From positions 3,038,001-3,102,000 of the forward strand of contig OZ287067.1 in assembly GCA_965645245.1 (NCBI GenBank): a DNA stretch of 64,000 bases, written 5' to 3'. Positions 28,244-51,032 of the stretch are shown one piece after another. Source of the DNA: Massalongia carnosa. Taxonomy: Eukaryota. A program made the position numbers and the translations under genes. Positions within the stretch are counted from its first letter, which is position 1. Every line of letters starts with the position of its first letter. The notes beneath the pieces were generated by a model. The model was not told the origin of the DNA and made no database searches. It saw only the letters and a program-made list of their open reading frames with translations.

Positions 28244-29328
28244 ATGTTCCGCCCCCACCGCCTCCCCTTCGCCCTCTCTCGACCCCTCCCCAACTCCCTC
28301 CGCCGCTACGCCGCCGCCGCCACCAACCCCCCTTTCAACGACCCCCTTCCCACCACCACCACCACCGCTACCCTACCCTCCTCACCACCCAACATTTCCG
28401 AAACTAACGCCACGCCCGTCTCGACGCTCGGGATGCGCGACTTGCCGCTACAGGAAGACGTCGCGGAGGGGGAGGCGCGGCGGCAAATGCAGGCGCCGAA
28501 TCGGGCAGGCGTGTGGAGTCGCAGCCAGCAGGAGCGGGAGGTGGCGATGCGCGGGCCGCGGTTCGAGCAGACGATTATGGAGTTCCAGGTTGGTGTTCGA
28601 GCGCTCTCTCTCTCTCTCTCTCTCTCTATCTTTACGTCCTATTTAATGAATAAAACCGTTGCTAACCCTTCCCGGCCTGGATAATTATAGCCCCGCCCCC
28701 AAGCCGCTATCGAGCTCATCCATAAGCAGCCCGTACATTGGACTCGCAGCCGCGTCGTCTCCTGTGACGGCGGCGGCGGCGCGCTCGGCCATCCGAGGAT
28801 CTTCATCAATGTGGACAAGCCGCAGATCAACACGTGCACGTATTGCGGGCTGCCGTTTGTGAGTCGTTCTCTTTTCTTCTTCTTCTTCTTCTTCTTCTTA
28901 ATTTTCCTATGGGGGGGGGGGGGGGTTCCTTTCGCTGGCGGTTTCAAATTGATGGGGAAATGCTTTGTCGAGGGTGTTGTTTTGCCGGGTTAGGTTTTTC
29001 TTTTATCCCAATCCATCGTTCCGAGGAGCACTCCCCATTTGAGAACTCCTCCCAAATTCCGCCACAGTTTTCTTCCGTTCTCTCTATCCCACTGCAAAAA
29101 CGGGCGTATAACACCCCCCTCCCCCCCACCTTCAAGAAAAGAAAGAATCTCCTCCAAATCTAATATCAAGCCCGGATTACCTTCTGATATGATTGATAGG
29201 CGCACGAGCGCCACCGAGCCCACCTACAGAGTCTAGCATCGACGGCCTACCCCCTCGAACCGACGGGCCATCCGGCTGAAGTTGCAGAACCGCAACGCGT
29301 TACGGACGAGGCGTTTGCGCAAAGATGA
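28244..29328 (+). CDS. NDUFS6: NADH:ubiquinone oxidoreductase zinc-binding subunit (NDUFS6/NUMM, zf-CHCC), 3 exons
   Basis: [54 protein letters not shown]; last exon AHERHR...FAQR*. Confidence 0.93.
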
Positions 29329-29524
29329 ATTAGTCAGAAAAGGGGGGGGGGGAAGGTTGAGGTAGGGATTGGGGAGGGGGGATATTTGGGTTTATGGGGG
29401 AGGCTGTGTGGGTGTTGCATAGATAGGTAGAAATGCATGAGGTTTTCTTCCGAACCTATTTATCTATATATATATTATATATACACCCCGAACTTAGGAT
29501 CTGAAGTTGCCGTTCCGGGACGGG

Positions 29525-29680
29525 AAAGGGAGCAGGGCCGCTTTAGAGGGAGCACCGAGGGAGCACAGGGAAGCACCGAGGGAGCACGGGAGAGCATCGA
29601 GGGAGCACGGGAGAGCGTCGTGGGAGCAGGGGGGAGTACTGAGGGAGCAGGAGGGAGCAGCAAAGGAGCACTGGGAGCAA
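29525..29680 (+). repeat. Subterminal array of ~10-11-bp GAGGGAGCA(C) motifs
   Basis: More than 10 degenerate copies; also found at 41141-41222 and 41982-42041. Confidence 0.85.
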
Positions 29681-29994
29681 TATAGGGCAGTGCAGGGGCG
29701 CAGTAGATGGGAGCCTTATATGGATTTCTTTTGTCTCGGCTTGAGCTGCCCTCGATGCTTTTCTGCTGCCTAGACTTCGCCACTTCCCACAGTATTCTTT
29801 TGGAGAATGATATGAAGACGGTACTAGAGATTGGTCCGAATCGGGCCACTTCCAACATATTTATAGAACTTAAGAAGAAAAGCGTTGACAAGTTTGCTCC
29901 CATTACGATCATAGGACGGGTCTAAATCTCCTTTTAACATTAAATATGTGAAAACAGAATGTCCACGAGACGCGACCAGTCTTTGTCGGGCATC

Positions 29995-30600
29995 TAAATT
30001 TGACTTGTAGCATCATTCAGAATCTCGATGAATTCTTCATAAGAGGCATCCTCGGGAATTATCAAAACGGCAGCATCGGCATGAGAACCGTGTATCTTTA
30101 TCCAGTCTTTGATAGATTTCCGTTCCGCCTCGCTTGCAGCTTGCCATTTAAAAACATTTGCCTTCCTGGTGGCGCCTTTGGCTGCACCTGGTCTGGTGTC
30201 GGGTATGGTCTTTGTTATGTCGCTGAGATCAAAGTGGAATCCAACAGTCTTAAGCTCCCTCTGCGAAGTGGGCCACGTGGGTTTGCCCGGCTTAGCTGTC
30301 GATCAGTCTCATTGCCTCCGGGTCTGGCGTTGTCATTGGAACTAGCGTAAAGATCTTTAATCCAAACGGTATTGGAATTTGAAGCTTGATAGTAGGAGCA
30401 TCTATGTAGAACGGATTGATTCTTGCAAAAGGGGTGCTATCTACATCCTATATTATGCGGGAGATTAAGATCTTCGCAGCTGCTGCCTAATTAGGTTGAG
30501 GGTTATCAGGGATTTCGATGTTGGTTTCGCTGGGACGCTGCGAACAGGCAATTTGACTCACCTTGACCACCTTCAACCCCGTCCGTCACTTTTACGCAGC
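29995..30600 (-). CDS. Small hypothetical spliced gene; start not located
   Basis: Last exon AKPGKPTWPTSQRELKTVGFHFDL...FIEILNDATSQI* preceded by a CTGAT..CAG acceptor near 30297; GTGAGT donor near 30561. Confidence 0.35.
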
Positions 30601-31054
30601 CTGATACGGCCGCTCCAGAAATAACGGAGGGAAGCAAGTTTAAAGGGGAGCGGCACCCTAGTCCTCTCCCCTCTTACGATAACCAGAATTGACCCCCGGA
30701 ACAAGCCAGCGCGTCGTACCGGACCGATCTTATCGCTCCGAAGAAGGATACGTCGACAACCGTCATCCGAAAAGCTGGGAACTGAAAATCCGTCTTAAAC
30801 CGCTATAAGACGTAAAGTTACCTTATAAATTAAACGAAAAGGGCATCCCTTCATCAGTTTTGTGTCGAGATGTAGGAAACAGATATCGTAAACACAAATT
30901 TAGGATTTGGACATGTTTGTGCTCAACGTGATGCTTTACGTTAAAAAAATGGAACTTTAGCCAAGCTACCTCTTGCCTATACAAGCAGCGCTCAACATCT
31001 GCTGCAAAACCTTCTGGTTATACGGGTGGCTTTAGGGGTCTGACCCTATCTAAG

Positions 31055-33393
31055 ATGTCTTCAGAGCAATCAGAAGGTAATTATGGTGAAAGAATCTGGA
31101 CAAAGTTAGCCGATTATCGTCACATCAGGCACCAGCGGTATGCGGCCGTCAATGTTCTGTTGATATCCTGGAAAGACGACGATACGAACAGTGCAGCTGA
31201 AATCAAGCAATTGAAGACACTCTTTCAGGATTCTTTTAATTACACTGTCTGCTCCTACCAGATTCCTTCAGCTAACTCACAAGCATCGCTCAATCACCAA
31301 ACTGCCTCGTTTCTCATGGCCTTCGGAGGACCTGACAATCTCCTCGTAATTTACTATGGAGGCCACGGCGGACCGAGGATGCAACAGAGCAAAAGTCCTT
31401 GCACCTGGGCAGCGTGAGCTTCCCTTTGACTTCTTTAATGCTTATGACGATAGACTAATTTATCCTAATTTTCGCTTTCTACAGGAAACTCGAAGCTGAT
31501 AGCCCGAGCTTGGATTGGTCCATTATCCAGCCATCTCTCCTCAATGCAAACTGTGACGTGGCTATTATTCTTGACTGTTGTTATGCCGGTCAGGCTGCAA
31601 GGTCTGTCTCTGCTCAAACGATCGAGCTGCTAGCGGCAACGGACAAAGATCAGTGGACACCAAGCAGTACAAGTAGTTTGCAAACTTTTACAAAAGCTTT
31701 GATCAAAGCCATGGGAAGCATGATTGAAAAGGACGGAGTTGTGACTCTTCGTGGTCTTGCCAAATCCTTGTCACAAGCAGAGGCAGGTCTTCATAGGCAG
31801 CCTTTCCACGTTTCTCTTGGTGGTGATCATTTAGCTGGACAAATCAAGCTAGCTAAGCTTCGCGATCCGAGAGATTCGCATGCCCGACTTAGAGAAACGA
31901 ATCCCGCAGTCTCACTGCAGCTTAGATTGTCACTTTTTGAACCCCTCAACTCTGAAACTGCCTCATCGTTGATTCGATGGATGACAAGAGACTCACCTAC
32001 GTCTATAGAGGACATTCAATTTGCAGAAAAGGCATTTGCTGAAGCCAACGATACCAGCCAACTCTGTAATCAGCTTCTCGAAGTTCACTCACAGGCTGAT
32101 GGTCAGCTCTTGTCATACCTCTCCAAGCAAGGTCAAGCAGAGGGGCTCGCCCTGCTTTCACATTTACGGAGTGCAATGTCGAGTCCGACTTCCATTCATC
32201 TGACCGATATTGAAGCAGTGGAGATCATCAATACCATCAAGCAAAGATCACACGATTTAGTAGTATTCATCGAGGACTCGCTTCCACGCTTCAACACAAG
32301 CTCCTTGCAAGCTTTAGACGCGGGAGAGAACCAAGATCTCAAAACCCGTATCAACATGCGTTTAACGCTCATCACTGAAGACATGCCTGACAAAGAGACC
32401 GCAATTGCGTTTGATGTTACAGACCCACCTCGAGAAGGTCAGCGTTTTCGGATGGGATCGAAAGATGGCAAACGAGTGCTTGTAGAATATTTCTACTACG
32501 AGGAGACGAAAAGCAACTCGGACGCATCCATCTTACAACAAGTTAGAAGAATCTCAGCCATGCATACCGAAGGAAAAAGCAGAGCATTCCACTCAATGCA
32601 AGGGGTCGGTTTCCTACGGGAGTCGCTTCATAGAGTGAGGTACGGGATTATCTACCAAATTCCAGAGGAGACAAAAGGCCAATCCCCTTCGTGCCTATCG
32701 CACCTGATCTCTAAAGTCAATACAGTACCTCTTGAAGTTCGTATGCGTACAGCTTATGCTCTTTGTGAAGCTCTCCTGAATCTTCACTCCATTGGATGGT
32801 ACCACAAAGCAATCAAGTGCGAAAATATTCTTTGCTTTGGTCGTGATGCTGAATCAGACGGTAAAGGATCGTTCGATAAATGGGAACTGCATTTCCCTTA
32901 TCTCATAGGCTTCAATTGTTCTCGGCCATCCGCTGTCGAGACACATAGTACAGTGGACTTCACGACTGCCAACAATATCTATAGGCACCCAGACAGATGG
33001 GGCCATGCCGCACCATTTCAGAGACATCACGACATCTACGCACTGGTAAGCTTCATCTCTTCGCTATTCAATTATTAGTTTTGTTTTATGCCTCAGCTGC
33101 TAGAGCTGACAATGGTCAAGGGCATCTTGCTGCTGGAGGTTGGATGCTGGAGGCTGCTGGAAAATATGGGCGGAAAAGCAAAGACCTTTGAACATATCAA
33201 AAACCCTGAAAACCTACGGATGCAACTGCTAGGAAGTATCCTGGACAGGACCGCACATGCAGCAGGAACAAAATATGCCTCTGCTATACGTTTCTGTCTT
33301 GAAGAGCGGCGGTGGGGTGATCTGGAAGAATGGCAGGTCCAGAAAATGATGAGGCAGATGGTACTTGAGCCCCTCAAAGCATGTTGTTCGTAA
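31055..33393 (+). CDS. Caspase-like (CHF-fold) peptidase fused to a C-terminal pseudokinase, 3 exons
   Basis: VLLISW..LFQDSFNY..VIYYGGHG and IILDCCYAG His/Cys dyad; LHSIGWYHKAIKCENIL, LIGFNCSRP, IYRHPD and HDIYAL|GILLLEVG kinase-like motifs. Confidence 0.8.
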
Positions 33394-33671
33394 AAGCACT
33401 TTGATGGGGGAAAGGGTGAGTTGATGAGACATTCAGTAACCGGATTCCTCTACCACTTCCTTAAATGCTACAACGATACGGAAGAAAGGCCACGCAGGAC
33501 GTTTAAACGCTTCATCCAACATCAAGTAGGTTGATGGGTAGGTTTGTAAAGCCGTCTGACGGCTATTGAGAGGCGAGATAGTAGTCATTTCCTTGACTTT
33601 GATATTGGACGAAGTTTAGAACTCCTTCAACTCTATCCATCCATTATGAGGGCATCTCGCTGCTCTCATTC

Positions 33672-34158
33672 TCATATGTTCCGACGGAGATACTTGCCCT
33701 CAATTAATTCCGGGTGTGGAATGTTATCGGAGCGTCGAACAAGCTCATATAAATCATTAGGATGGGCTCGAACGATGAGGAATTCGCCTAGAGGTGCCCG
33801 ATACTCTGGTCTCACGATCCACACTACTTCGTTTATCTCGAAGGGAAACTAGAAAGCCAGGCTTGCTGTTAGAGATCACATACGGGCAGTTTTCTCCGCC
33901 TGAATATGAGGTTTTGGATAACAGGAGGCTAACCTCGGCCGCTTTTTGGTAGGGGTCGACATGTGTCTTCCGGTCTTTCTCTGGGATCTCGTCCTCGTCT
34001 TTCTGATTGTACTGTAGTCCATCCACTTTTGTCAGGCTACGACTCCTTGGAACTTCATTTTTCGTCAGGAGAAAGTCACTCACCGAATACTGATTCGATG
34101 CAGTAACAGCATTTGTCATCCAATTGTTCTGAGGCTGATTCTTGTCCTTGAAAGACAT
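33672..34158 (-). CDS. Small hypothetical protein, 2 exons
   Basis: Exon 1 MSFKDK...YQKAAE|GTTAGC; exon 2 after TTCTAG reads FPFEINEVVWIVRPEYRAPLGEFLIVRAHPNDLYELVRR...YLRRNI*. Confidence 0.6.
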
Positions 34159-34590
34159 GACCGTACGTAAACGAGGAGGACTGGTGTTTGTGTGGAAAAA
34201 GGTAATCTCAACTACAAGACAAAAGGCTCAGCAAGCAGTCAAAATGCGAAGCTGACGGATATCGTTAGGTTGGTTGCCTACATGACAGCCTGCAGCAGTC
34301 AGCTGCACACCTAGCTGCAGCGACGCCTTAGAACAACTGGGGTAGTGATTGGAGTCAAAAACGCCACGGAGGGGCAGGGATGTGAGGTCTCTGACTTCTC
34401 TATCGTCCGCACTCTCAGGCGAGAAATCAAGATGTCGCATCCTCACGCAAATATGAACTGTTGGATGTCAGCCCTATAACGCTAGTGGCATGGTGGTTTT
34501 ATAGTATCAATTTTATAGCTTTTACATATCATCAGTCATTTTACCAACAACTAGCCTATCACATGCTCCATCCTATAGCCTGCTGCCAAC

Positions 34591-35794
34591 ATGAACGGAC
34601 AGAAATGTAGGATCTGCGAAATCTCATCTGTCTTCTGAAAACATGGCGCAATCTTACACTTGAGATTTGTTGACCCTAACATCTCAGTACTGGAGGATTA
34701 CCCCCAAGGGTACCCCCGGCTCGCCGCTTTCCTCGCTCTGGATCGAGACTTCACCATATTCAAACGGTTCGATTACCTACACATAAGGAGCCTGCTGGGG
34801 CAACAAGACGAGCTGGCCGAGCTGCAGGAACGACTTGAACGGTGCGACGAAGCGGAGCCCATCCGGCTGGGCCTCAGCAGCCGACGGCAAGATGAGAACG
34901 CGGAGCGACGGGAATTGCTTCGACAGGTGAAAACCAAACTGCAAGAATACGACCGTTGTGTACAGGACTTTCACGCCATGCTGCGACTGCCTGAGGCTCA
35001 CCGGACGCAAAAGCAGAACGTGGAAAATTGGTACATAGGTAACAAACCGCTGGTGCGCTCGGAAAGTGCTTGCTATATGAACTGCACGCGTGGTCATGAC
35101 TACGTCGCTCTCACACCCAAGGATACCGATAGAGCCGGCCTGGAGACCCTCGTGGATCTCACGATGAGAACGTGTCCCAATGTTGCGAGGCATGTGAGAC
35201 AACCGCACTAGATTATCATGATACTGGTGTTACATACAGGCTAAAAAAAGTTTTTTTTCCCGAACAAGTAGTTCCTCAACCCAGAGGTGAGTTGACAGAA
35301 ACAAGAAGTGAGCGGAGAAAAGTGGAGGGAAAAAAAAGAAGTATCAAGCAATAATGCTATGTTCTGAGTCGAAATCTTTTCCAGGCCAAAACTCGCGACC
35401 GCAACATCTTCGTCTTCCAACCCAATTTCCTCAACCGCATCGTGAAGATCCTGTTCGCCTTCTTCATCCCCTTGTGGCTGGTCTTCCCCACCATCCTTCT
35501 CTACAACGCGACCAGCCACGGCAGCCGCGCGATCATCTACGCCATCTTTACCTTCTGGACGTCGTTCATCGTGATCTCCATGGCAAATGTCACCAAATAT
35601 GACCTCACCCTGGCACTGATCACGTAAGTTTTTTTTTCTTTGGTTTTTTGGTTTTTTGGTTTGGGCCGATGGGGTCCCTTAAAAACTTCAAAAAGGATTT
35701 TTCACGAAGGAGGGAGCGAGCGTTTCGTTGATGATAATTCAGATACACCACGCTTCTCGGGGCGTTTCTTGCTAGCAGTCCACGTCTTTCGTGA
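34591..35794 (+). CDS. DUF6594-family membrane protein, multi-exon
   Basis: LEDYPQGYPRLAAFL..FTIFKRFDYLHIRSLLGQQDELAELQERL signature; C-terminal hydrophobic helices (ILFAFFIPLWLVFP, AIIYAIFTFWTSFIV, LALITYTTLLGAFL). Confidence 0.8.
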
Positions 35795-36084
35795 CGTTCG
35801 TGCAGAATGTGTTGGTCACGACGGTGGACGTGAGGGGTTTGATTCGTGCGAGAAGGTGAAAGCCGGTCGTTGAGCAGGGATTTTGGAAGAATAATGAAGT
35901 GTAGCGACGGCCAGATGGATCTTGTCGTTTTTAAAAACGCGGTGGTTGATTCTATCCTGCTACTATGTTCGCATTGAGGTGTCCTCAAATCCTCGTCCGA
36001 GACGCCAGCCAGAGCTATTCGGGCTAGTTCCTTAAAGAAGATCTCACATTGAAGGGTTTGTTTTGACGTTTTTCATGCGTTGGG

Positions 36085-39000
36085 CTATGCTAAGCGTGTT
36101 CGGAGTCCACGAAGTCGGCGGAAATCGACCGAGAATACACTCCACTCGTCCTTCCAAGGCATCTTGGCCAGTTCCTGACCGGTGTATTTCCCTTCCAGGC
36201 TTGGCCATGAAGCCTTCACGTCCGCAATCTTTGGGTTGCGTCGAGCGAGTGATTTTGTGTGGCTTGCATACACCATTGACGAACTGATGTGAAACTCGGT
36301 GATGCCTTCGAATCGACGGTCATTTCTCAATAGATGCCACTGTAAAAGTTCTTGGGCCGCACGGAGTGAGCTGTTCCTCAAAGATTCAGCGGTCTTCTCC
36401 CCTGGAGTCAAAGTTGGACCGCTTGTTAAACCTTTGATTCGCTTTGCCCCTGTTTCGGCAGCATGAGATATGACGTGTGCGACGCGGTGTAGGAATTGAG
36501 GTTTTATGGTCGGTTCCAGAACGGCTTGCTTCGAGGGAATAGCATCTTGCGTTTTCGCTACTCCCATTGTCCCGCGAGCGAACAGCGACGAAGATGTCCG
36601 CGACACCCAGATTGCGATTTGAAACGGTAAGAAAGGAACCACCAGGTCATTCCCGTCATCGCTGGCTCTCTTTTTAGCCAAGAATGGCACATTTGCATCA
36701 GCTCCGGCCTCGAGTAGAAGCCGAATGACATCAAGGTCAAGAAAACTGGCCGCTCGCTGAAGCATGGTGACATCCTTCTCATCCGGCGTATCAATATATC
36801 CTGCCATTGACTCATTGGAGATCAAGGCTAGAAACGCATCCCAAAGCGAATTTTCAAAATTTTGGGATTTCGCATCCACATGGTGCTCTGAAAAGTAAAT
36901 ATCTCGAAATACGAGTAGCTGTTTAAGTACCTCATGCGCTTTAGATAAGACAAATCGCGTTGAGGAGTCCTTGTTGCCAGGATTCTTATTAATGAAGGCA
37001 TTGAGTTTTTCACGAGCCATGTCTTTGTGGAGTGAGAACCACCATGACGGATATTCATGTGCCATGCTTTTCTTAAGAAAATTTTCGTTTTCCTCCCCGT
37101 ACCTCGATAAGATTGCCTGCATTTCAATATCCCCTGTCTGAGCGGCGACATCAAAAATCGAAAACGTAGTGCGCTCATTGATCTTTTGATATCTGTCAAC
37201 TCCTTTCTCAAGCAAAACCTGCACACCCGTCGTCCAGCCTGCACTCACAGCCGTAAAGAGAACATTTTCCTTTCTATGAATATCAGCAGACTCTGGCTCC
37301 TTTAGTTCTTTGACCTCGTCGAGTTCAGCAACAGAGAAGTTGCGAAGTATTGCCTCAAGAACGGGCTTCCATGCTGTGTTAGCCCTTGCCTGTCTCAACG
37401 CTGTGTATAAGTTCGACATCAGTACTTCATCTCGTACATCGCTTTCGAAACCCTGTCTGATTATCGAAGGAGGACATAAATCCAGGAGCACTTCCAAAGC
37501 TTTGAGGCATGATTGAGTTCTTGCAAAGACGATGCAATTCCTGAGCATGGTATTGTAATTTATCAAATTATGTGCGTCACAGAGCCGAATGGTACGTTCA
37601 ATTGCAATGTCCCCATCTCGTCCATGAATAAACAGATGTGTAAAGGCTTGACTGTAATTGAGAATTGGATAATCTGCTTCGGAAACTAGACCAGATGATA
37701 ATGGCCCGTTGGAAAGCAGATCTTCAGCTATTTCATAATAGGCGTATGAAATTGCATGTCCAAGTACGTTTCTTTCTTGACCTTTGGAGTGTGGAAGTAA
37801 TGCAGCTACCAGACCACGGTTTCTTGCAATTACAGCCCATTCGATAGGAGTTCCAACTAATTCAAAGGTCGTCTTTGCCAAACGGGTCGCTTTAGAGCAG
37901 ACGTTGGTAGGGGCACCACAGGCAATTAGCAAGCTCACGGCTCTCTGAACAAGGTCCACAGGCATGTAAATCATAAGATGTAGTGCAGTAATGTCTTTTT
38001 TTCCACAAAGTGAGAGGTCAGCACCGTAATCAAGGATAAATTTCAGCGAAGACAGATTGCCACCTATACAAGCGCAACGCAACGCGTCGATTCGAGCCTT
38101 ACGGCCTGTGATCGCTTCACCATTTGAAAGGAGCCTCGCTATGACTTCATCCTCACCCAGTAATGCAGCAATTTCCAAGGTTGTCATGTCATCGGAACCA
38201 ACAATATCTGATCCAATTTTTCTGGAGAGCGTCGTCGTCGCTTGCAGTTCAATATAGTTAACATGTAACCAGGAGTGACCCTCAGACGATAAAGCTCGAA
38301 TCTGATTAGCTGCAGAGACAACTCTGGACTGAATTTTTCTCATTAAATATAGCTCAGAGGCAGCAAAACCCTCGATCTCATTGTTCTGACTTGTTTTAGG
38401 CTGGTTCTTTGGCTTTACGACGAGTTCAGGAGATGGAGACCCAAGCACTTCTGAAAACCTGCGCAAACAAATGGAAGATATATTACCATAAGATTTTGAA
38501 ATCTGGAGCCAGCGAAGAGCTTCTTCCGAATCATAGCTTGTGCCGAACGCGATGAGATAGCACTCCGCTAAATTTAAGGCAGCTCTCTCACGCACACTGT
38601 CAAAGAATTCGAAGGGTTTTGAAGAAGTGGCATACATCTTAAGTTCATCTAGAGCACGCCGTTGTAAGCTGTCTGGGAGGTTTAGGCATGTGTAATCCAA
38701 AAACTACAAAATATGTGCGGTTAGTTGTTTGTGATTCAATGAGTCGCGGAAAACTGTCAACACTGCATATTCACAGACATATTGACATGGAAGGTATGCT
38801 TACTTCTGCTCTTGGAAACTGTGTGCCCCAAGTTTGGAAGCCACTATGCGTGGTTTCAATGATTCTCGCTGAGACTTCGATTTCTTCAAAATCAAAACTG
38901 CAAATTAACATCAGTGTCAGTTTGCATTAATACAAGAAGTAGTCAATCAAACCCAGTCTTCTCTGCTTCCGGTAGAAGAATCTTCCAAATTTTTCGGATT

Positions 39001-40079
39001 GGTTGCCTTTGTAGAGGGTCATCTTGGAGGGAGGCATTAAATGCCTGTAAGGCTTTTTCATACAATATTTCATCCATGTTTTGAGCCGAGAGGAATTTTT
39101 TGCAATACGTCAGCAGTCCGTTACATGGGAGAGCCGATAGGAATGCCATCTTCTCCTCCACGTCCAATTCTTGCGTCGTTTTTCGAAAGGGATCCAGCCA
39201 AGCGACGTCGAAAAAAGAATGTCCATTGTTGAGGATTTCCCATAGTAAGAGGCCAAAAGAGAATATGTCTGCTTTGATTGCGGCAGCAATGTCAACAGAT
39301 CCAGCCCCCAGGGCTTGATTTCGAACCTCAGGTGCATTCAACAGTGGTGTTCCCAGCGGGTAGTATACATCTCTCTCTGAATCCGCAGAGAAATCTCCAG
39401 AATGTGCGTGTACGCTGAGTCCAAAGTCGGCTAATTTTGCTACATGACGGCCGTCATTACCGTTGAAGATTAGAATATTCTGAATCTTGAGGTCTCCATG
39501 GCAAATAAGGTCTTGATGCAGAAGGATCAGACCGCGGCTGACCTGAAAAGCTAGGTCAATCTTTAGTTTGGTGTCCAATTGCTGTCCGTTTCGCCGAAGA
39601 AAGGAAGCCATGTCACCGAGCTCTGAATATTCCAGGAGCAGGTGAAATTGGCCAGCGCCAGATGGGTCAAGACCGGCGAATGGTTTCTCGAAGCAAACGC
39701 CTACAACTTTGACGAAGAGATCCAACTGGCGAAAGGAAGTCGACGTGAGGATTCGTATTTCAAGCGTAAGACGCGCAAGATCCTTGTCGAAACGTGAGAT
39801 ATGCTTACGATTGCCATCCTGAAGACGTCTCGTGCGCTTGATGACAACACCAGGACGGCTTGATAGTTCCACGACCGCTTGTCCCCCAGAGCCTATGGGT
39901 TCAAGGTTGTTGAAACGTCCGCCTTCCACGAATTCTCCGTAATCAGAGACGTTGAATTTGCTGGAATGTAGTACCTGCATGAAATCAAGGGCCGGCGTTG
40001 AAAGTCGCGCGTCATTGCCAGCAGCAGAGGCGATTGAATTTTCGGCACTGGAGCTGCGCGGCCAGAGGGAAAAGGACAT
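36085..40079 (-). CDS. Protein kinase + ankyrin-repeat protein, multi-exon
   Basis: GSGGQAVV, VVIK, HGDLKIQNIL, LADFG, NAPE, DIFSFG in 38943-40079; ankyrin motifs TTLEIAA, ITALHL, GTPIEWAV, LLLEAGADAN in 36085-38700. Confidence 0.85.
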
Positions 40080-40619
40080 TGTTGCTACTGGTATCGCCGC
40101 TCAGTGACCATGCTAACTCCTATATTTCTTTTACAACATTTCGAAATAATTCTCGAACATGATGAGTAGCTGAGGTAGCAGCTGAGCGGCGCAACAGCTC
40201 CACAAGGCATGCACGAGGCTATCATAAATAGATGACTTGTACCTAAGTACCGTAAGCGCTAGGTCGCAGGGTCTTGGCACCCCAATGTGACATGTTCAGA
40301 CACTCCACGCTTTTGCCAGTGCGACGCTGCCCTGCTCCGCCAAAAATTTGGTCAAAAACTGGAAAGCCGAGACATCTGCACTGGGTTGCACAACGAGTGA
40401 TGCTCAATCCATACGAAGATGTAGAGTTTCGTATTTTCTCTCATAAATATGCAACGCCCAATGGTACATCTTTTCAGCCTCAAATATCTTCCCCTGATCA
40501 GCATATCGTGGGGCCAGATTGCTAAGGCTATCTAGTGTAGACGGGTGCTCAGGACCCCATGCCTCCTCCGTTCTATCCAATGTCTGCTGAGATATCTTCT
40601 CGGTTTGGGCTGAGCACAG

Positions 40620-40932
40620 CAGCCGCGTACGAAACCCTCTACGAAGTGTTTGGCCGTCTTCCTATCGTACGGTGTAGCGCCCGGGTTTCGCTTCTTATAT
40701 CTGTTTGACCGCACCATCAAAAAAGATTCCAGTAGTATTTTGGGGTCACAAAGGAAGTGATAAAGACTCACTCATCCCAAAGGACCAGCATGCGGGTTTA
40801 ATTCGTTTCCGTACCAGATTCGAGGCCTTTCGAGACTTTTTTGTTATTCAAATCGGTCTTTATCAAAGGTTCCAGACCATATGTTTCCGCATCGTCGAAG
40901 AATTGCGCAGCGATCCTCTTCTTCTTCTTCAT
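40620..40932 (-). pseudogene. Probable 5' remnant of a Starship captain (DUF3435-type tyrosine recombinase)
   Basis: MKKKKRIAAQFFDDAETYGLEPLIKT...GTETN*TRMLVLWDE|intron 40771-40701|YKKRNPGATPYDRKTAKHFVEGFVRG; resembles captain N-termini from memory; first gene inside the terminus; no catalytic domain present. Confidence 0.5.
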
Positions 40933-42791
40933 TGGGAAGGAGATTGATACAAAAGCTAAAGAACGAATACTTTATACATTGTCGACGGAACGAACGAAGG
41001 GGAAAATGGAGAGGGGTATACATAGACAGCCGGCAGAGCTATATATAGAGCCATCGGATCAGCATCCACTTCCAGCTGTATAAAGGGTCTCGCTTAAACT
41101 TGCAAGAAACTGACGGCGAATACGAAAGAAGGACGTGGCTGAGGGGGAGCACGGGGGAGCACAGAGGAGCACGAGCGAGCAACGAGGGAGCATAGGAGAG
41201 CAATGAGAGAGCATGAGGGAGCTGGCCTGCTGGGTCAGAAACCTCTACGTGGTGCAGGCTATCAACACCTCCTCGGAGGTGGCCAATATTTGATCATCGC
41301 CAACGCGGAAGTCCACCTCGGTGGCCATTTGAACGATCAACGTCTCTACTGATCATTCGTCACCTCGAAGGCACACATACAAAGCCCATTCATTCGGAAT
41401 GGCCACACCCCTCAGGCGGAAGCCTTTCACCACATCGAAAAAGCCCATTCATTTAGAATGGCCACACTTACACACCTTCATTTATACGACACCACGATCT
41501 GCCCTCGATCACGGCCAGTCTTTCCTCCATTGAATCAAAACGTTTAAAGAGAGAGAACGTTCGTCGAACGTGTGGAAATACACTGTCTAGTTCATCGAGT
41601 CTATAGGATTCTTAGCGCTTGAAGATCTGGGTGTATGCACCGCGTGGTAGAAGGACGGTCTCGTTGCGTTCAACATGGAACAAGGGAGTGGTTTTACCCT
41701 GGGGGCCAGGTTTCCACTTCCTGACTGTTGTTTATGTACATAAATAGCAGTCACAGCGTCATATCCTTAGGATGCATACGCTTAATGAATTAATAAAAAA
41801 AAAATAAAAAAATAGAGGGAGCATGTCGACGAATCGGGCCTTAGCGGGGGAGCAAAGCATCGAGGCCTGAGTCAGCAGGCGGTCACGTGTTGCCCTGGGT
41901 TCGGGGAAGATATATATTATACACCCCGAACTTAGGATTTGAAATTGCCGTTCCGGGACGGGAAAAGGAGCAGGGCCGCTTTAGAGGGAGCAACGAGGGA
42001 GCAGGAGGGAGCACTGAGGGAGCAAGAGGGAGCACTGAGGGTAGGGCTCTGAAAATTTCGAAATTCTGACAAGGTCGCACGAAAATTTCATCACGTGTGC
42101 GCGCCAAGCATGAAATTTTCGAAATTTATTACTAAGCACATATACATATCTTGTACATAGTTGCCTCAGTACCTCAGACGTGTTGTGGCACAGCCTTCGC
42201 CTGCACTAACCTCTTTCGGTTAGCTCGGCGCTAACTTATTTAGCCTATATGCCTAACCCTTTAAAGTTAGGCTTTGCTTACTAAGTTCGCTGTGCTTACA
42301 CGTCTGAGGACAAAACTCAATAATACGGGCAGGTTTGCTTAATAAATGAAATAATACTTAATTATCGAGCGGCCTTCCCCGATTGAGCGTAAAATATCAA
42401 CTCAATCATGTTATACCATACCGCCGTTTTTTATATGTGTTATTTTTATGTTTTGGAACCGCGCGGTCGAATATGTGCACTAAAGAACGACATCAAGGGA
42501 TGGCGAGCATGCTTTTTAAACTCGATGCAAGCTGGACAAAAAGCTCGGGTCTCAGTCTACAATGGACATCAATTTGGGTCACGAAAATAGTAAGAGAAAG
42601 TCGGTTGCAGCCGGTCATTGATTCATAACTAGCAGTGCATCTCTATAGCTAGACTATCCACGGCAAAGCCGCGCTGCGCGGATTTGCCACATGACATTTG
42701 GTCTACCTCTTTCTTCCCTTGGCTGCCTTTTTCACATTTTGGAAAGAGCAGGAGAAAAGACCGAGGTTATGAATGAGGTCGTTGTTGAGGC

Positions 42792-44970
42792 ATGGAGCGT
42801 GTTGATTCCAAACGGCTACGGGTAGTCAAATATGCAACTGAAGGAGACGCCCTCAGTACCCTTGACAACCCCAATATCAAAGATATTCGAAACAGGACCA
42901 CTACAGCCAGAAATCGAAAAGCAAAGTCGATCAAGGAGATAAAGGCGGTATGGGGATCCGAAACTGAAGACTGGCACTTTGAGGAGTTTGGTGAGCTCTA
43001 TCTGAGCAAGGTGGCAGCGGTTGCCAAAAAGCACTCCTTTGATAAGGCTAGCAGGATGATTTTACAAGTTACCATGGATCGCTTACGAAAAGGTCAGTCT
43101 AGTCGTGGCTCGACTAGAGACATTATAACCAGAGATTGGGGCAATCTAAACGCGATGAACGAAGAAGACGCCAACTCGTTACTGTTGCGGCCCTCTCTTG
43201 ATGCTGAGGAGCTAGCTCAATTTGAGATGAATCTGATAAAGCTAAATGTGTCTGGTGAGCGCGGCCGTTCAGAGAAACGACTCACCACCGTCAAAACGAC
43301 GAAGATTTAAGTCCAGGGCAGTCCACCTTCGAGCGCTCACCTCTCTCACTCAAAAGAACATTGAGTCATCACAGGATGATGAAGAGACCGAAGAGAGAGA
43401 CGAAGAAAGTAGTGATGAGAGTGAGGTGGAAGAGAAGAAATCAATGATGAAAATTTTCAAGCAAAAGTGTTCATGTGAAAACATTCATCGGGCGATTCTG
43501 GAGAGACTAGAGAGAAAGACTGCCTCAGCGGCAGGAATGAAAGGTGACGCAGAGTGTCTAGGCACTCTTAGAAAAATAATGTCTGCAGTTATCCACGGAG
43601 AGGAGTTAACTCACATCTGCTATCGTCATCTTCTAGCTATAGGCGGTCATTTCGGTTTTCAAGTCAATAATTTAAATGCAGAAGAGTTAAGGCAGAGGCT
43701 CAAGTCTTGTCATCATCATCGTTCCAACCTCGATGATCTGAAAACAGGACGGGAGACAAGCTTCTGCTTTCGTTTATGTGCTAGACCGAGGGTTGATGAT
43801 GATGCTCTTGGCGTCTATTACAAACGAGCAACGAGATCATCTCTGATAAGAGGGCTCAATGAGGAGCAAGCCAAAATCATAGTCGACGAGATTGGAGGAG
43901 AGTTTGCTTGGGATCTCTGGATGAAAGATGGAAATCGTATGTTTGATTGGTTGTGGAAAGGGATAAAATCCAAAGACGAAGTAGAGACCGGAATCGGAGA
44001 TCTAATACTCGAAGAGTTCGACATCTATCAGTGGCATCAGCGGGAGAGGAATGGTCAGTCGAATCGTGGATGGTTACGAACTATGTAATACTCTTTAACC
44101 CAACAGTTGATCCGTCAAGACATCGAATACTGGGCACTGTACGCGTGCCTCCGTCCCGATCGCAATATTCGATTGGTATCATATCCGTATTACGCGAAGT
44201 ATACACGGGAGGGAGATCCAACTTTTTTTCGCCATATTGATATTAAGGTACCAAAATATCTGGATAATGGTCATGGGGGCAACATCATTCAAGGTTCGGT
44301 GTCGCTTAATGATGAGACCGCCGAGGGGTGTACTAAAATAGTCCCTGGTTTTCATCTACACATTGCCCAGTGGTGGAATAACGTGTGCGCTCGTGGAGAG
44401 GTCCCGGATGGACACGTACATGGCCTTGAAAAAATATGGATCAAAGAGGATGCCGCTCAGTTTGGAGACTTTATTCCTGTTCACTGCAAAAGAGGAGACG
44501 TGAGAGTCACGAAGCCAGAAATCCTTTATGGTTCGACTCCAAAAAAAGGAAACGGCCCGCGTCGGACGGTTCTGCCTTGGTACGTCGGCGTGCAAGAAGA
44601 CGGCGAGACGCAGGACATTGTCGAGTCCGATAAATAGAGTGACCTCGCAAGGGCGCATGCTAGTCAAACAGCACCCAGAGTCACTCCTTCAGGACTCGCG
44701 AATCGATTTGGGCCTATCCATAAGTTTCCACCATCCACTCAGCTCTGGCTTGATTCTCCTATCAGTCACGCGCTCGTCTGTCGGACAAGCTGGGAGGACC
44801 CTGTCGTTCAAGCGCAGGCAAACGTAATACTGGGAGAAGATCGCAAGTTAGCAAGAGGCGATTCAGAACTATAGGTTGAACGCTTGCGCAGTTTCAAGGC
44901 CGCGTATGGAAGAGTGAAAATGGCGGAGAGATTGATGTTTGGAGAGGATAGTTTTTTCGTAAATAATTAA
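42792..44970 (+). pseudogene. Disrupted gene with a C-terminal PhyH-like 2OG-Fe(II) oxygenase domain
   Basis: FRHID (HxD), IIQGSVSL..E..GCTKIVPGFH, CKRGDVRV, RRTVLPWYV; in-frame stops at 44086-44088 and 44635-44637 plus frame changes. Confidence 0.6.
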
Positions 44971-45194
44971 GCAGTCGATGCCTGCGTCAAGCCTGTTTAG
45001 TTAGCGTGCCTATTTTTGAGCTAGTCTCTTGTGTTAATGTTAATGGTGAACTTAAAGCCGCGCCGCGCGGATTCGACCTAGCGCGGCATAAACTTACATG
45101 GCTATACCCTGCACATCCCGCCCGTGCCCCGCTAGCGGTGTAAACAAAGGAAAGGTCACCTGTCCACAGCGCAAAAAAATACATTGACTTCATC

Positions 45195-45591
45195 ATGGCC
45201 TCAACCGAAGCCAACGCCTCCTCGCCCACTGACCTGTTGACAAGTCCCCTGACCTCGAGAGTTTCAACCCCTTCACTGCCAGAAAGCCAAACTCCTTTAA
45301 GGCGCCCTCAATCAACCTTTGCAACTGGCCTCTAAGTCGCTCGTTGAGGTCAATGGGGATCGATTTTCGATGAATCCGACAGTTAACCTTTATATGGAAG
45401 GCCTCGCTCGCCTGGGTGAGAGCTCGATGAAGTACAATCGACATTACATAAGTGAAACAGTACCCCTTGACGATCATGAAAAGGATGTTGAACTTGGACT
45501 CGCGCCTACAAACGAAACCAGTGAAGCACCTGAAAGCCCCACCCTTCCAACAAGTACGCTGGAACCCTCAGGCGGTATGTTTGTTGATTAA
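45195..45591 (+). pseudogene. Small frameshifted hypothetical gene
   Basis: MASTEANASSP... from 45195 shifts into ORF 45319-45591; bounded by palindromic motifs. Confidence 0.3.
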
Positions 45592-45654
45592 ACCCGTTCT
45601 ATTCATCGCTCACCGGAGGAGCAAATCCGCGCCGCGCGGCTTTGCTGTCCGCCA

Positions 45655-47887
45655 TCACTCATCCAGGTAAGCTGGTCGCCTTCTTTTTCGCCCGGAGCGA
45701 GAATCGGGCAGCTCCCTTGAGGCGATAGACGTTAACTCCGGTGAAGGTCGACGAGGCGTTTGAAGAGGTTTGTCTCTTGAGTTGTTGATGAATGTCTGAG
45801 CTCGATGAGCTTTTGGGGTTGCGTTCAAGCTTGACGCCCTTATTTCACTAAAAGCGTGACGGATAAAAGGTTCAGTCTGATGACCTGATGAAGTAAGGCT
45901 TAACCTATTATCTCCATCTTCTTGCCCTAGATTTTCCTTATCGCTCGTCGTGTCGTTGTCACTTGTCTTTTTCAGCGTTTTCCTTTTGACGTTCATCGCA
46001 TATCCTCTTTGAATCGCCCAACTGTTTCTTCGCTCATCAAATTCTGTTTTGGCAGGATTGCTTAATGGCACTAAGATTCGTTTTTTTTTAATATCATTGT
46101 GCCGCTTCCATTCTTCGAACATTTCCCCCTCGGCCAGATCTATCGCTTGACCCCGTTTGAGAATATCCAGAATTTCTGCGCTGTGAATTTTCATGTCACT
46201 CCAGAAACCATCGATGAATCTCGTCATATCCGATTCATCGCTTATAAGATCCGCCCAAGTTGCTAAGGATTTCAACACGTCGTCTGGCAATATCACCGAT
46301 GGGAAAAATTGTATGTGAGAATTGGGAAATAGGATTTGTGCCTTGTTTTTTCTCCATTCTTCCAATCGACGAGTGAACCATGGACGCTTGGAAGCATTCC
46401 GAGCGTTATCTGTGTTCAATATGTCATGAGGAAGTGTCGATGTCTGCGATTCAGGGTTGCAAGTCGAGCAACATGGCAGCGGCTTCTCAACTTCGGACGA
46501 CGCATATGTATCATCATCAAAAACGCCAGCCCGGTTTCTCGAATGCATGCATCTGAAGCGACGTTGATCATTTCATGTAGTCCATGCGGCATGTCGCGCC
46601 TCCGATCCGCATCCAATTTCTTTGTGCCCTTCTTATCAGCGCCGGAGGCGGCTTGGGTTATCAGCTGACCCAGCGAATCCTGAGTGAATAGGACCTTGCC
46701 GCTCTTCGGCCCCACACACCATGGCGGATGCAGAAAGATGAAATGAGCCCGACGTCCACCGCTTCGCATGGCGCGTCCCATACGCTGATAGAGTTTCTGC
46801 TTTGATGAAGGTAAAAGCCACTGCGCCACTCTTTCAATATCGGGATTGTCAATGCCCAACCCATATGCATCCGTTGCAATCAATATTCGAGGCCATGCAC
46901 ACTCTTCCGAAGATACCCTGAACTGACGCTGAACCAGCTGCTTATCAAACGAAGCCATATCACCAAAATAAGGACTTATCCAATGATAAGATTCTTTAGG
47001 ATATCCTAGCTGTCTCATCCAATTGCGCATCAACTTACATGCGGTTTTGATGGAATTTATCGTGTCCATGTAAATTATTGTCTTTGGAACATCAAAAGGA
47101 GTTTCGGCTCGAATCGGTAAAAGATGTTGAAGGTCAAGCATTCCAGCTTGTGTTTTCAATAAAGAACTGACTTGAATGTAAATCTCTGGTCGATCAAGAG
47201 GCGCTTTAATAAGACGAGTTTCATCATGAAACCCACATTGACTTCTGACGCAGTTCAGGGTTTCTTCATCCAAAGTTGCAGAAACTCCCAAAAAAGGTAT
47301 TCCATCTGGCAATCGGGTTCGAAGCACTCCAAGGTTGAAGTATTCCGGTCGGAAATCGCGCCATTCTGATACCAGATGCAGCTCGTCGATGGCCAATAGA
47401 CAAAGATTTGAGAAATAAGACGAATGACTGAGAACCATTTCGTTAAATCGCTTCGATGTTGCTATTTCTGGACTTGTGAATACTGTAAGTGTTAGACCGC
47501 TGACTTGTACACAACAGGAATATTCGACTTACCATGAGTGTAACAACTTTGACGAATATCAGTCAAGGTAGACGGATTATTATTATCTCCGTTCAACACT
47601 ATGGGTCGACAGTTTTCGATGAAGGTAAGTTTTTCACATTGCTCCTCTTCCAGTGCAATCAAAGGCATGATTATCAACACTGACTTGCAAGGCGAAAACA
47701 TCAAAGGAGCAGCTTGAAACAGTATGCTCTTTCCGAAACCTGTTTTTGCTATCAAGATCAAATCCATTCTATCACACAACAGATGATGAAGCGCATCCAC
47801 CTGCTCCCTCTTTGGACGAAATCCGAAATACTGATCAACAACGCTCTCGATCTTCTCACGAGTCAACATCTGTATCGCGTCACTCAT
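45655..47887 (-). pseudogene. RecQ-like SF2 helicase; one intron and one frameshift near 46520
   Basis: AKTGFGKS, IMPLIAL, FTSPE, IDELH..W.DFRPEY, SAT, ATDAYGLGID, YQRMGRAMR; RQC-like cysteines (CIRE..CCSTC) split by the frameshift. Confidence 0.85.
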
Positions 47888-48549
47888 ATTGATGTAATAT
47901 CGCTACAACAAGAAAGCACGCTAGCAAGGACGACGACTATATTTTTGAGTTTGAAGTCCTGAAGAACTACGATAACATGATCCGCCAAGGCAATATGATG
48001 AATATGAGCGCCGACTGTTGAATTGAAGAGCAAGACTCAATTCGAAGTTGTTGTGCTGTCGTCGAGATTTGAGAGTCAATTTGAGTCGATGTTGCTCGAT
48101 GATGAAGATAACTGCGCAACGCACGCAGGATGTTTAAATTTTAGATCATTTAATAAAGAATATCTTAAAGTAGCGACGACAATAATGTATTATATTACAA
48201 CTATCATTCGTTGATCTTGTCTTAAACGTGAAAAACGATGATTTTAAATCTTAAGCGCGAAACTTACGTGTGTTGTCACCAAAATAACGCGAACCTGACA
48301 AAATTACAGAGTTTTGAACTCAGACCTGCCGCCCGAAGCATGCGTAGTAAGCTAAATAGAATCTTATCCTAAAACAGTTAAACATTTAACTAAATTGACT
48401 TAGCTTCTGACTAATTATATACTAATCCGAAAAGGCTTAGCTGTGGCGAGGGCAAGGCAGGTCTGAGGTACTGAGGCAAGTAGATAGATCGATACCTCAT
48501 TTTGATAGTCACTCTCATACATTTAAAGGTATCTTCCTATTTTATACTC

Positions 48550-50493
48550 ATGGCTCAACGCGGTGGAAGAAAGAAAAATTCTCTAATTGAGGAGAATTTC
48601 AAAGACGTGATCACCATGGGATTGAAAAAACCTCAGCATCAATGCATTCATTGTGGTCATCAGACTACCAAGAATGCTGTAAGAGGACTATCACATTTAG
48701 ATCAATGTGATGCCTACAAACAGAAGATAACAAAGAAGGAAGATGCCTCGTTCAGTTCTAGATCAATCCAACTGCCCATTACCACCATGATTCGTCCCCT
48801 TAGCCAGAGTCAAATTGCTCATGCTCATCGCGAGGCGGCGATGTCTGTTTATATGACAAATCTTCCCTTCAACCACTTCGAGAATCCCTATGTTATTGCG
48901 GCATTTCAAGCTCTTTCTCCTGGATACAAGCCCCCTCATGCCAGACTGATGGCTGGACGATTGTTGGATGAAGCCTATGAAACAGTTAAATTCAAAATAA
49001 ATCAAGAATTGAATGCTTGCAATCATCTCAGCTTTTTTACCGACGAGACAGCCAACATTCGAAAAGAGCGAGTAATAAATCTCTGCTGTCACGTTCCCAC
49101 ATCTGTCACTTCTAGTGGCGGAGGATTTCAGCTAAAAGCTGATGTCGGAGTGGCGGAAAAAATGACGGCAGTCGTACAAGCTGAATGGGTGATAAATGGA
49201 TGTAGGGATGCTACCAACAATCAGCTTGAAAGGGTTAATTGTATCTGCACCGACACGTGCTCTACAATGAAAGCCATGTGGACGGAAATTTCGAAAAGTG
49301 CAGAGATGAAGCATGTTTTCTTCGTACCTTGCGATAGTCATGGTTTGCAGCTATTGTTAGGAGACATTTTGAAATTTCCTTATTTTACAGATGTTATAGA
49401 AAAGGCTCAGTTGATCGTCATCAGTTTTCGCGGATCAAATAAGGAATTAGCCAGTTTATGGAAATACCAAATGAAGGCATACAAACAGCGTCGTTCCTTG
49501 GTTCTCAACGTTCTCACCAGATGGGGTACGACGGTTGGTCTTTTAAATTCAGTACTGAATAATCAACAGGCCTTGTTGGATTATTTTCAGCAGAAGAATC
49601 CAGGCATAGATCAGGGAAGAAATAAACCTTTGGGAAGTTTCGTCAACGATTATTCCTTTTGGAAGAAACTGACCATGGTCAAAAAGATACTGAATCCCAT
49701 TCATAAACTTCAGTACATGTCCGAAGCCGAGGGATATAAGCTATACACCGTAACAAATAACTGGAATATCATTCGCTCTCATCTGTACTCGATGGCCGAA
49801 GAAGAAAGCGACAGTGAGGCGGATCTATATCACATTGCTCACGTCGTTTGGGAAGATAGATATCTCAGTCAAATAACAGAGCTTCATGTGGTTGCATCTC
49901 TTCTGCTTCCGCAAAATCGTACGATAAAGGTGGTCGGAGTTACTACAGAACATGCTTTTTCATCGATCATGCATAGATTCTTTGCTCGATATCTGAATGC
50001 TGAAGATAGCATCGTTGCCATGAGACAATGGCTTGCTTTTCGAGATCAGGAAGATGGATTTCATGCAAACTCAGAATGTTGGACTTATCAGATGACACCG
50101 GAGCTGTTTTGGAATTTTTGCAAGCATTTTGCATTGATTCTTAGCAAGCTGGCCAGAAAGGTAATGATGCTTCCTGGCAATTCAGTGCTGGCAGAAAGAA
50201 GTTGGTCGGTCATGAATTTGATCATGAACAAGACTCGAAATTCCATGGCATCGATCAACGTGGATAAGCTGATGTTTATTTATCTGAATGAAAGAACTCT
50301 TAACCGACCGAAAGAAATCAAAAGGAAGCTACAATTCGCAGGCATTGACATAGAAGAAGACGATCTATGTGAGATGGAAGACAGAATGTTGCAGGAAGAA
50401 ATCTCTCTGCAAGAAACAGCGACAGTAAAATCGTTGAAACGACCAGCAAGTCAAGCGATAGAGGGAGATGCGGTCAGGCTCAGAGATACTTGA
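48550..50493 (+). CDS. hAT transposase (BED finger, DUF659, dimerisation domain)
   Basis: CIHC..H..C, TDETAN, CDSH, TRW and NSVLAERSWS motifs; intact ORF. Confidence 0.92.
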   Translation: MAQRGGRKKNSLIEENFKDVITMGLKKPQHQCIHCGHQTTKNAVRGLSHLDQCDAYKQKITKKEDASFSSRSIQLPITTMIRPLSQSQIAHAHREAAMSVYMTNLPFNHFENPYVIAAFQALSPGYKPPHARLMAGRLLDEAYETVKFKINQELNACNHLSFFTDETANIRKERVINLCCHVPTSVTSSGGGFQLKADVGVAEKMTAVVQAEWVINGCRDATNNQLERVNCICTDTCSTMKAMWTEISKSAEMKHVFFVPCDSHGLQLLLGDILKFPYFTDVIEKAQLIVISFRGSNKELASLWKYQMKAYKQRRSLVLNVLTRWGTTVGLLNSVLNNQQALLDYFQQKNPGIDQGRNKPLGSFVNDYSFWKKLTMVKKILNPIHKLQYMSEAEGYKLYTVTNNWNIIRSHLYSMAEEESDSEADLYHIAHVVWEDRYLSQITELHVVASLLLPQNRTIKVVGVTTEHAFSSIMHRFFARYLNAEDSIVAMRQWLAFRDQEDGFHANSECWTYQMTPELFWNFCKHFALILSKLARKVMMLPGNSVLAERSWSVMNLIMNKTRNSMASINVDKLMFIYLNERTLNRPKEIKRKLQFAGIDIEEDDLCEMEDRMLQEEISLQETATVKSLKRPASQAIEGDAVRLRDT

Positions 50494-51032
50494 GATTGTA
50501 TGAAGATTAATAGCTAAATCAAGTATCTTCAAGTTGGCATGTCCTCGTTCCTATTTTCCGCTTTCCCCGCACCCCCCTCCCCCTTGCCTACCCCCCTGCA
50601 AAACATCCATGAAAATTTCACTCGTGAAAGTCGCAGTGAAACTTTCATCCCGATCGGGTTAGGCAAAATTTCATGAAAGTTTCATTTCAGAGCCCTAACT
50701 GAGACGTACCTTCTCTGGCGCTAAGAGCGCCATCCGGACGGTGATCCAGCCCCCTTGCGAAGTTCCGAGCTTCTTGCTCCTCCCTTCTGACACCATCTTC
50801 GCAGTGTCATGATGCTAAGTCGGAAGGGGCTAAACCTTATCAGGAGTAGAGTCTCGTGTATTACAAATTCAGAGCTGCTGGTTTAGTCCAGCCGACGGAA
50901 GGATTCTCTAAGAAATTTCCGTTTCTTTCTAATTACAAACAGGAACTCGTGCATTTAAAGTCGCCTTTGTGACAGTACGATCTATCTTTCGAGGGTTACT
51001 CCTAGACCGCAGCCCAAGCACACAGAATTGCT

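Follow-up and report, generated by a model that had tools for sequence, protein, structure and literature searches.

Introduction

Does the fungus Massalongia carnosa carry giant Starship transposons in tandem beside one of its core genes, or do the termini found there belong to something smaller and more numerous? The question is raised by a 64,000-nucleotide stretch of its genome (assembly GCA_965645245.1, contig OZ287067.1, positions 3,038,001 to 3,102,000 of the forward strand), which we call the window and number from its first letter. An initial annotation, made from the letters alone, had proposed that a giant Starship-like element (A) lies just beyond an NDUFS6 gene and is followed by a sister element (B) at the same TA-rich target. 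The analysis described here points to a different view. The ends of A are real and numerous, they lie in many contexts and they pair around 0.15-12 kb of varied content. We consider it rather probable that they mark a many-copy family of non-autonomous terminal inverted repeat (TIR) transposons that carry host genes as cargo, are associated with TA tracts and are moved in trans.

According to excerpts of PMC11162782, to which all our statements citing that source are limited, Starships consist of a DUF3435 captain located at the 5' end and of cargo, and they have direct repeats and, in some cases, TIRs. Starships are described there as low-copy elements of 15-511 kb without conserved structural features, some families of which favour AT-rich sites. 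An example from a lichen-forming fungus is Tangerine of Xanthoria, which measures 85-102 kb, with 1,390 bp between its 5' end and the captain (PMC13486527, likewise cited from excerpts).

Terminal repeats at the two edges of element A

A 17-mer, CACCCCGAACTTAGGAT, occurs exactly at 29484-29500 and 41922-41938, both times on the plus strand. No third copy was found in the 64-kb window with up to three mismatches tolerated, and two matches were reached in none of 100 shuffles. A repeat finder paired 29480-29603 with 41918-42041 (124 nt, 89%), and in a pairwise alignment the likeness between the two left ends runs from TATACACCCC, includes 4 differences within the first ~80 nt and fades beyond about 115 nt. 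The repeated terminus at 29484 with some 4 mismatches in 80 bp, on which the initial annotation was built, is thus confirmed by exact match, repeat finder and alignment. The second copy is present as claimed but its start has to be corrected to 41922. The TA-rich flanks at both termini read as they had been given, and an exon of NDUFS6 type does stand beside the element (Table 1).

Just ahead of the second left end lies the inverted core, CCCCGAAC on the minus strand at 41899-41906, where the right end of A had been placed. Taken as an 8-mer it is weak: the window contains it 4 times where 1.7 are expected, and a count of 4 was also reached by 8 of 100 shuffles. The adjoining ~100 nt to its left (41813-41909) match the right ends of relatives in other records, at best with 85% over 108 nt, and for this reason we regard the inverted core as a real terminus. 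Repeats of a 21-nt unit, GAGGGAGCA, form clusters at 29546-29679, 41143-41222 and 41983-42041, all in the same direction. Of the proposed tandem, what is borne out is a complete A with a second element's left end lying head-to-tail behind it, a short TA tract separating the two.

A dispersed family with conserved ends

Contigs of four coded sequencing runs were aligned on window positions 26000-45999: X19, which is the likely source, X5, a rock metagenome, and X1 and X20, two related samples. A scan of metagenome contigs for the terminus pattern matched at least 122 stretches, nearly all in one assembly series; a set of 121 public metagenome-contig stretches carrying the pattern (hereafter the loci, with L numbers) contains 134 matches. 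Of the 132 left ends preceded by at least 45 nt, 104 differ from one another, and the far flanks of 102 are distinct. In X19 the left-end bin has a depth of 3.5x baseline, and in X5 one of 38x. Five X5 contigs leave the window leftward at 29465 with flanks that agree poorly, and four others pass the right end to 41917 and continue with a TA tract and other sequence, not with B. The interior of A from 30153 to 41216 is held by one X5 contig, with 266 differing letters. In one contig from a lichen metagenome, 29608 is linked to 41831 through six other letters, which amounts to a two-ends-only form of about 210 bp. Among 10 of the 67 papers matching a literature search for the terminus, none contained the 13-mers.

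Outside the CCCC of the left-end core (from 29486 in A), 20 nt are kept at 64-97% per position with the consensus ATATATATATATTATATACA, and at position -21 conservation drops to less than 50%. In 69 of the 104 distinct left ends the ten letters that close this outer tip read ATTATATACA. Because these 20 nt are conserved, the TA-rich tract belongs largely to the terminus, and the limit of conservation together with the contig departures sets the outer boundary of A at about 29465. The core at 29484 stands as initially annotated, but the boundary lies further out than had been assumed. Inwards, family likeness persists over 300-400 nt. When A was compared with the loci by BLAST, the overlapping hits in the first four 100-nt bins peaked at 164, 149, 50 and 17. 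The left end of A, taken to 29880, includes a further family-conserved block besides the GAGGGAGCA repeats. The family core, CCCCGAAC(YY)AGG, is inverted at the two ends, and the subterminal 100-400 nt contain GGGAGCA repeats spaced about one helical turn apart, which we take to be putative binding sites of the mobilising enzyme. Right ends share ...GAGCAAAGCGGCGG..CCTTAGTCAGC..GTCACGTGTTGGCCTGGGTTCGGGG, followed by four variable letters and the TA tract; a transition-rich variant of the right end terminates in ...GATTAC.

The ends were mapped by profile searches, with an 87-position end model for pairs of a left end and an inverted left end. By our count these searches yielded 41 pairs of adjacent ends, the shortest of 154 bp and the longest of 12,423 bp, and some of the pairs are one locus from different assemblies. 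Eleven pairs measure 154-268 bp and five 320-639 bp; the remainder fall between 1.5 and 10 kb, apart from A itself, the longest of all. A left end is paired either with a right end or with an inverted left end, and neighbouring members meet in every orientation (head-to-tail, head-to-head and tail-to-tail). The junction of right end, TA tract and left end seen between A and B recurs in other records, the head-to-tail spacers (counted by eye) being 15 nt at A-B and 17-25 nt elsewhere. Inverted ends, unrelated contexts and short derivatives, the features by which families of TIR transposons and of miniature inverted-repeat transposable elements (MITEs) are recognised, are all present. The claim that these are termini of mobile cargo-carrying elements is borne out, as the ends recur at many loci and pair around varied genes. 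Within this family, 29465-41917 is in our judgement probably one complete member of 12.4 kb, or about 11.8 kb when a nested insert resembling a short interspersed nuclear element (SINE) is subtracted.

Movement and cargo of other members

A member of 3,242 nt is 99.4% identical in L007 and L046 and has unrelated flanks on both sides, a pattern that indicates at least one recent move of a family member. Cargo varies from member to member and includes an open reading frame (ORF) of 913 amino acids with a HET domain, a Zn2Cys6 factor, APH together with a carboxylesterase, an NB-ARC-TPR gene and a GRDP-like gene. Within a 6.3-kb member, a 742-residue ORF (L046:6957-9182) joins pieces of Asparaginase_2, HIT and class II tRNA-synt_2 and looks like a chimera of captured gene fragments.

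We propose that members are mobilised in trans by an enzyme that would be encoded elsewhere, and that they would integrate into TA-rich DNA at TA. Resident copies, having TA-rich tips, could then serve as targets in their turn, which would produce tandem pairs such as A-B. Our leading guess for the enzyme, made tentatively and with rather less than an even chance of being right, is a DDE transposase of Tc1/mariner type; the properties of this superfamily fit both the TA association and the MITE-like forms.

Search for a captain or another enzyme

In Pfam searches DUF3435 (PF11917) was not found in window ORFs of at least 100 amino acids, nor in stop-read-through frames over 29400-31100 and 40000-43300, in all six such frames over 57300-64000 or in the plus-strand ones alone over 50500-53300. 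The loci and the window together have 449 ORFs of at least 180 amino acids, which fell into 321 clusters; 291 representatives of these were scanned (20+73+74+124), the rest being window ORFs. None of these 291 representatives, which lie around the 134 ends, matched DUF3435, the Helitron Rep domain or a hAT, Mutator or PIF transposase.

The Starship identity proposed in the initial annotation is therefore not supported, since DUF3435 was missing both from what was scanned in the window and from the surroundings of the related termini. No captain lies at the 41909 end, where a minus-strand orientation of A would have put it. With 12.4 kb against 15,020 bp for the smallest Starship in the excerpts (PMC11162782), A is not giant, and its copy number is not that of a Starship either. 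The terminus behaves as a dispersed repeat with many copies and MITE-like derivatives, a pattern that the initial annotation itself had named as incompatible with its proposal.

One lead to an enzyme came from L001, which has a Tc1-type DDE_3 ORF of 337 amino acids (8530-9540, minus strand, 114 bits) that is directed inward and whose start lies 488 nt within a left end. At that left end the likeness to the family stops by ~350 nt, ahead of the ORF, and a search for TIRs belonging to the ORF itself found none. We regard it as a candidate for the family enzyme, an unproven lead rather than a link. A Tc1-type element in L052 was considered as the autonomous copy of the family and rejected, as it has its own TIRs of ~200 nt and is simply nested in a left end.

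Evidence against the proposal and alternative explanations

Several observations weigh against a family of trans-mobilised transposons with A as a complete member. In the end map, read by eye, many left ends stand without a partner over 10 kb, and core genes lie close to some of these. Solo and short members are common, so that A could owe its pairing to two ends that are independent of each other. The inverted sequence common to left and right ends amounts to only 8-11 bp. In none of the copies examined did a transposase lie between two family ends; the DDE_3 ORF of L001 stands at one of 134 ends, contains one in-frame stop and sits behind a left end with no partner within 10 kb, and a relative in L051/L052 (58% identical) has its own ~200-nt TIRs. 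No joint that deletes A alone appeared among 15 of the 76 contig joints. Nor was an empty site for A or any other member found among the loci by three modes of search: the 9 megablast indels include none at a mapped family end, a flank-to-flank search returned matches to neighbouring family ends alone, and 12 blastn indels at 75% identity include none with family ends. Finally, L028 and L073 have a 6.36-kb member and its left-side flank in common at 99.3% (near position 3660) and are wholly unlike beyond the right-end TA tract, a break that could come from ectopic recombination at TA tracts or from a metagenome mis-join. Both flanks of A are TA tracts and mask any short direct repeat or target duplication. 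X5 has zero depth on 26000-27333, 42675-44008 and 44676-45999 while the interior of A is covered; a copy of A lacking its neighbours would fit this, but holes in coverage are not used as evidence. The X19 joints 29514 to 42161 and 42042 to 42161 have sides of only 22 nt and are given no weight.

The alternative that survives best, although we think it unlikely, is that A is not one unit. Independent left and right ends would then bracket a fixed accessory region, and the end at 41922 would be a third small insertion. The unpartnered left ends and the frequent members of 150-270 bp are what this explanation would lead one to expect. It also draws on the place of A as the longest pair seen, on the lack of a joint from 29483 to 41910 among the same 15 of 76 joints, and on a lichen run of the same species that has A in place. 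Against this, the same combinations of ends are seen in more than 20 further pairs of 1.5-10 kb, and the 3.2-kb pair moved as a unit. Moreover the boundary of A coincides with the end of the core genes, and the interior of A, with its 266 differing letters, occurs in a run where a query made half of core and half of element had a share of 0.24.

Somewhat less likely still is a Starship-type or other tyrosine-recombinase system in which A and the small forms would be captain-less and moved in trans, while B might be large with its captain past 64 kb. Site-specific recombination in the TA tract would regenerate the target and so build head-to-tail arrays. Such arrays in one orientation do exist, for example in L046, where five left ends point the same way along 13 kb, and right-left junctions have a single TA spacer of 15-25 nt instead of two full tips. 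The far end of B is absent from the window, the cargo of A is of the HET/NLR/kinase kind, and there are short inverted cores with TA tracts on both sides. The family is also like Starships in being fungal and in carrying host genes, the preference of some Starship families for AT-rich sites is in keeping with this (PMC11162782), and NLR, ankyrin and kinase genes are typical Starship cargo in the excerpts of both sources (PMC11162782, PMC13486527), Tangerine showing that lichen fungi do hold Starships (PMC13486527). Yet head-to-head and tail-to-tail junctions occur too, and members made of a left end and an inverted left end resemble classical TIR elements. Where Starships are described as low-copy, at least 15 kb long, led by a captain and without long conserved ends (PMC11162782), the present family occupies about 100 contexts with sizes of 0.15-12.4 kb, conserved ends of 300-400 nt and MITE-like derivatives, and no captain was found in the scanned ORFs and frames.

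About as doubtful is a captain-less cassette shuttle, in which the right end, TA tract and left end would form an imperfect palindrome and site-specific recombination in the TA tract would be carried out in trans. Members would then stack head-to-tail, rather like integron cassettes, and intact HET, NLR and caspase-kinase genes could spread within and between lichen-associated fungi.

Rolling-circle movement of the Helitron2 kind is the least probable, for although its architecture of asymmetric inverted ends, a TA tract as terminal palindrome, gene capture and read-through arrays would suit the whole captured genes, the one chimeric ORF of three gene pieces, the restriction of conservation to the ends, the TA-rich flanks and the head-to-tail arrays, matches to Helitron_like_N or PIF1 appeared in no Pfam scan of the window or the loci representatives, the ends do not read 5'-TC...CTRR-3', and in many members the same end, over at least 87 nt, is found at both borders in inverted orientation.

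Relation to known TIR transposons

Transposons that move cargo between TIRs are familiar from the Pack-MULE and other Pack-type elements. The trans-mobilised family proposed here is like these and like the 14-kb ToxhAT in being non-autonomous and bounded by TIRs with host genes or pieces of genes inside, and in having common ends alone, so that movement would presumably depend on a transposase encoded elsewhere. Unlike them, it often carries whole genes (up to four in A), and its end types combine freely.

The Tc1/mariner superfamily includes Stowaway-like MITEs, and the rice element Micron targets TA microsatellites. Integration at TA or (TA)n would likewise give TA-rich sides, and short derivatives are abundant in both cases. 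In contrast to these elements, the 20-nt TA-rich tip of the present family is nearly fixed in length and sequence and thus seems to belong to the element and not to be a remnant of the target, and a DDE_3 gene was seen behind one family left end alone.

Features of element A and its surroundings

The features of the region are collected in Table 1.

Table 1. Coordinates of element A, its neighbours and the insertions nested in them (window positions).
Feature	Position	Strand	Basis and remarks
NDUFS6-type zinc-finger exon, last conserved core gene before A	28691..28990	+	Pfam zf-CHCC, 67.7 bits, E 8.4e-19
A left end	29465..29880	+	TA-rich outer 20 nt 29465-29483, core CACCCCGAACTTAGGAT 29484-29500, GAGGGAGCA repeats 29546-29679
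Cargo resembling caspase/DUF7580/kinase genes of fungal cell-death type (lead only)	30932..33078	+	adjacent ORFs 30932-31417 and 31459-33078
DUF6594 cargo gene	34639..35211	+	Pfam PF20237, 108.5 bits
Protein kinase (38943-40100) and ankyrin repeats (36085-38703)	36085..40100	-	Pfam PK_Tyr_Ser-Thr/Pkinase, Ank_2
TPR_10 fragment, NLR-type repeat remnant	40404..40661	-	Pfam TPR_10, 36.2 bits
Right subterminal GGGAGCA-type tandem repeats	41143..41222	+	orientation same as left end
Nested SINE-like retroposon, outside the family	41224..41812	+	A-rich tail
A right end	41813..41917	+	...GAGCAAAGC..CCTGAGTCAGC..GTCACGTGTTGCCCTGGGTTCGGGG, then AAG and TA tract
Single 15-nt AAG and TA-rich spacer common to A right end and B left end	41907..41921	.	
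Left end of second family member, B	41922..42041	+	broken at 42041/42042 by nested insertion
hAT transposon nested in GGGAGCA repeats of B left end	42042..50697	+	13-bp TIRs, DUF659 and Dimer_Tnp_hAT
6.3-kb element nested in the hAT element	42161..48479	+	perfect 19-bp TIRs, 8-bp duplication GTACATAG/GTAGATAG
Accessory region of uncertain status	50706..64000	.	arginase fragment, AAA_11/AAA_12 helicase and RZ finger, DUF7924, kinase (Pfam)

The first two cargo ORFs of A have no Pfam match. Their nearest Atlas cluster is 'DUF7580/Caspase/Protein ... kinase' (score 0.93, 206 of 256 features) and matches to the RIPK1 kinase core are weak (E 0.2), so that the label in Table 1 serves as a lead without assignment to a family. 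The SINE-like retroposon near the right end has a depth of ~470x baseline in X19, that is, a very high copy number; loose contig ends fall at 41224 and 41804/41812 with low agreement, and GAGGGAGC flanks the insert on both sides. The model of a hepatitis delta virus (HDV)-like ribozyme, RF02682, matches the first 72 nt of the insert (41224-41295) with 31.4 bits, below the gathering score of 44. This match starts exactly at 41224, a boundary set independently by the contig departures, and the Rfam and tRNA scans of 29-43 kb gave nothing beyond it. Indices of repeat-induced point mutation are unremarkable over 29-64 kb, and this process was rejected as the source of the GC dips.

A sister element B of large size, as initially proposed, was not recovered. 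What the window holds of B is a left end of 120 nt, and the next 8.7 kb are a nested hAT element. No further family end was found from 42041 to 64000, even at E 50, and no family likeness was seen after the hAT element; B is thus a left end of uncertain reach and may be a solo end. The nested element has perfect 13-bp TIRs (TAGGGCTCTGAAA) at 42042-42054 and 50685-50697, flanking octamers (ACTGAGGG/ACTGAGAC) identical at 6 of 8 positions, and subterminal GAAATTT motifs. Its transposase frame is open over 669 amino acids and ends at 50493, with the first ATG near 48550 by manual count. Short TIRs, flanking octamers and a transposase with a dimerisation domain identify it as a hAT element, and its own TIRs at 42042 and 50697 rule out the hAT gene as a transposase belonging to B.

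The hAT element is itself interrupted by a 6.3-kb element whose flanking octamers are identical at 7 of 8 positions. In X1 and X20, contigs that reach 42160 go on with the window letters found from 48488 onward, and this joint shows an empty site for the insertion in both samples; together with the TIRs and the 8-bp duplication it marks the 6.3-kb element as one of hAT type. It is without a transposase of its own and carries a 2OG-dioxygenase-like gene (Pfam PhyH) and a helicase (Pfam DEAD, Helicase_C), which we take to be RecQ-like from motifs recognised in the translation. The element is multicopy, which explains the 3-7x depth over 42.7-46 kb, and being missing at this site in the two related samples it appears to have moved recently.

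Beyond the hAT element, nothing in the window links 50.7-64 kb to B. The DUF7924 gene of this region (58574-59791) leads in the Atlas to DUF7924 clusters, with PD-(D/E)XK nuclease clusters ranked lower, which is no more than a lead; a search for a relative of solved structure found none. At 60535-60682 about seven 16-nt direct repeats (TGGCGGCATCCAGAAC-like) lie in an ORF of unassigned function. In the otherwise core part of the window we noted a Pogo/Tc5-type element at 3245-5190 (DDE_1 and HTH_Tnp_Tc5, with perfect inverted repeats of 87 nt), a Tc1-type remnant at 11997-13181 and a NACHT-ankyrin NLR gene at 16221-18932. The Tc1-type remnant has no nucleotide likeness to the loci.

Implications

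This locus is a caution: a Starship cannot be called from definable termini, accessory genes and a TA-rich site alone. If the proposal of a trans-mobilised family is correct, lichen- and rock-associated ascomycetes would hold an active many-copy TIR family that moves whole host genes. The packets would measure 1-12 kb and their cargo would often be of the non-self-recognition or cell-death type. Genes would be shuffled in units far smaller than Starships, by a route that captain-based Starship finders would miss.

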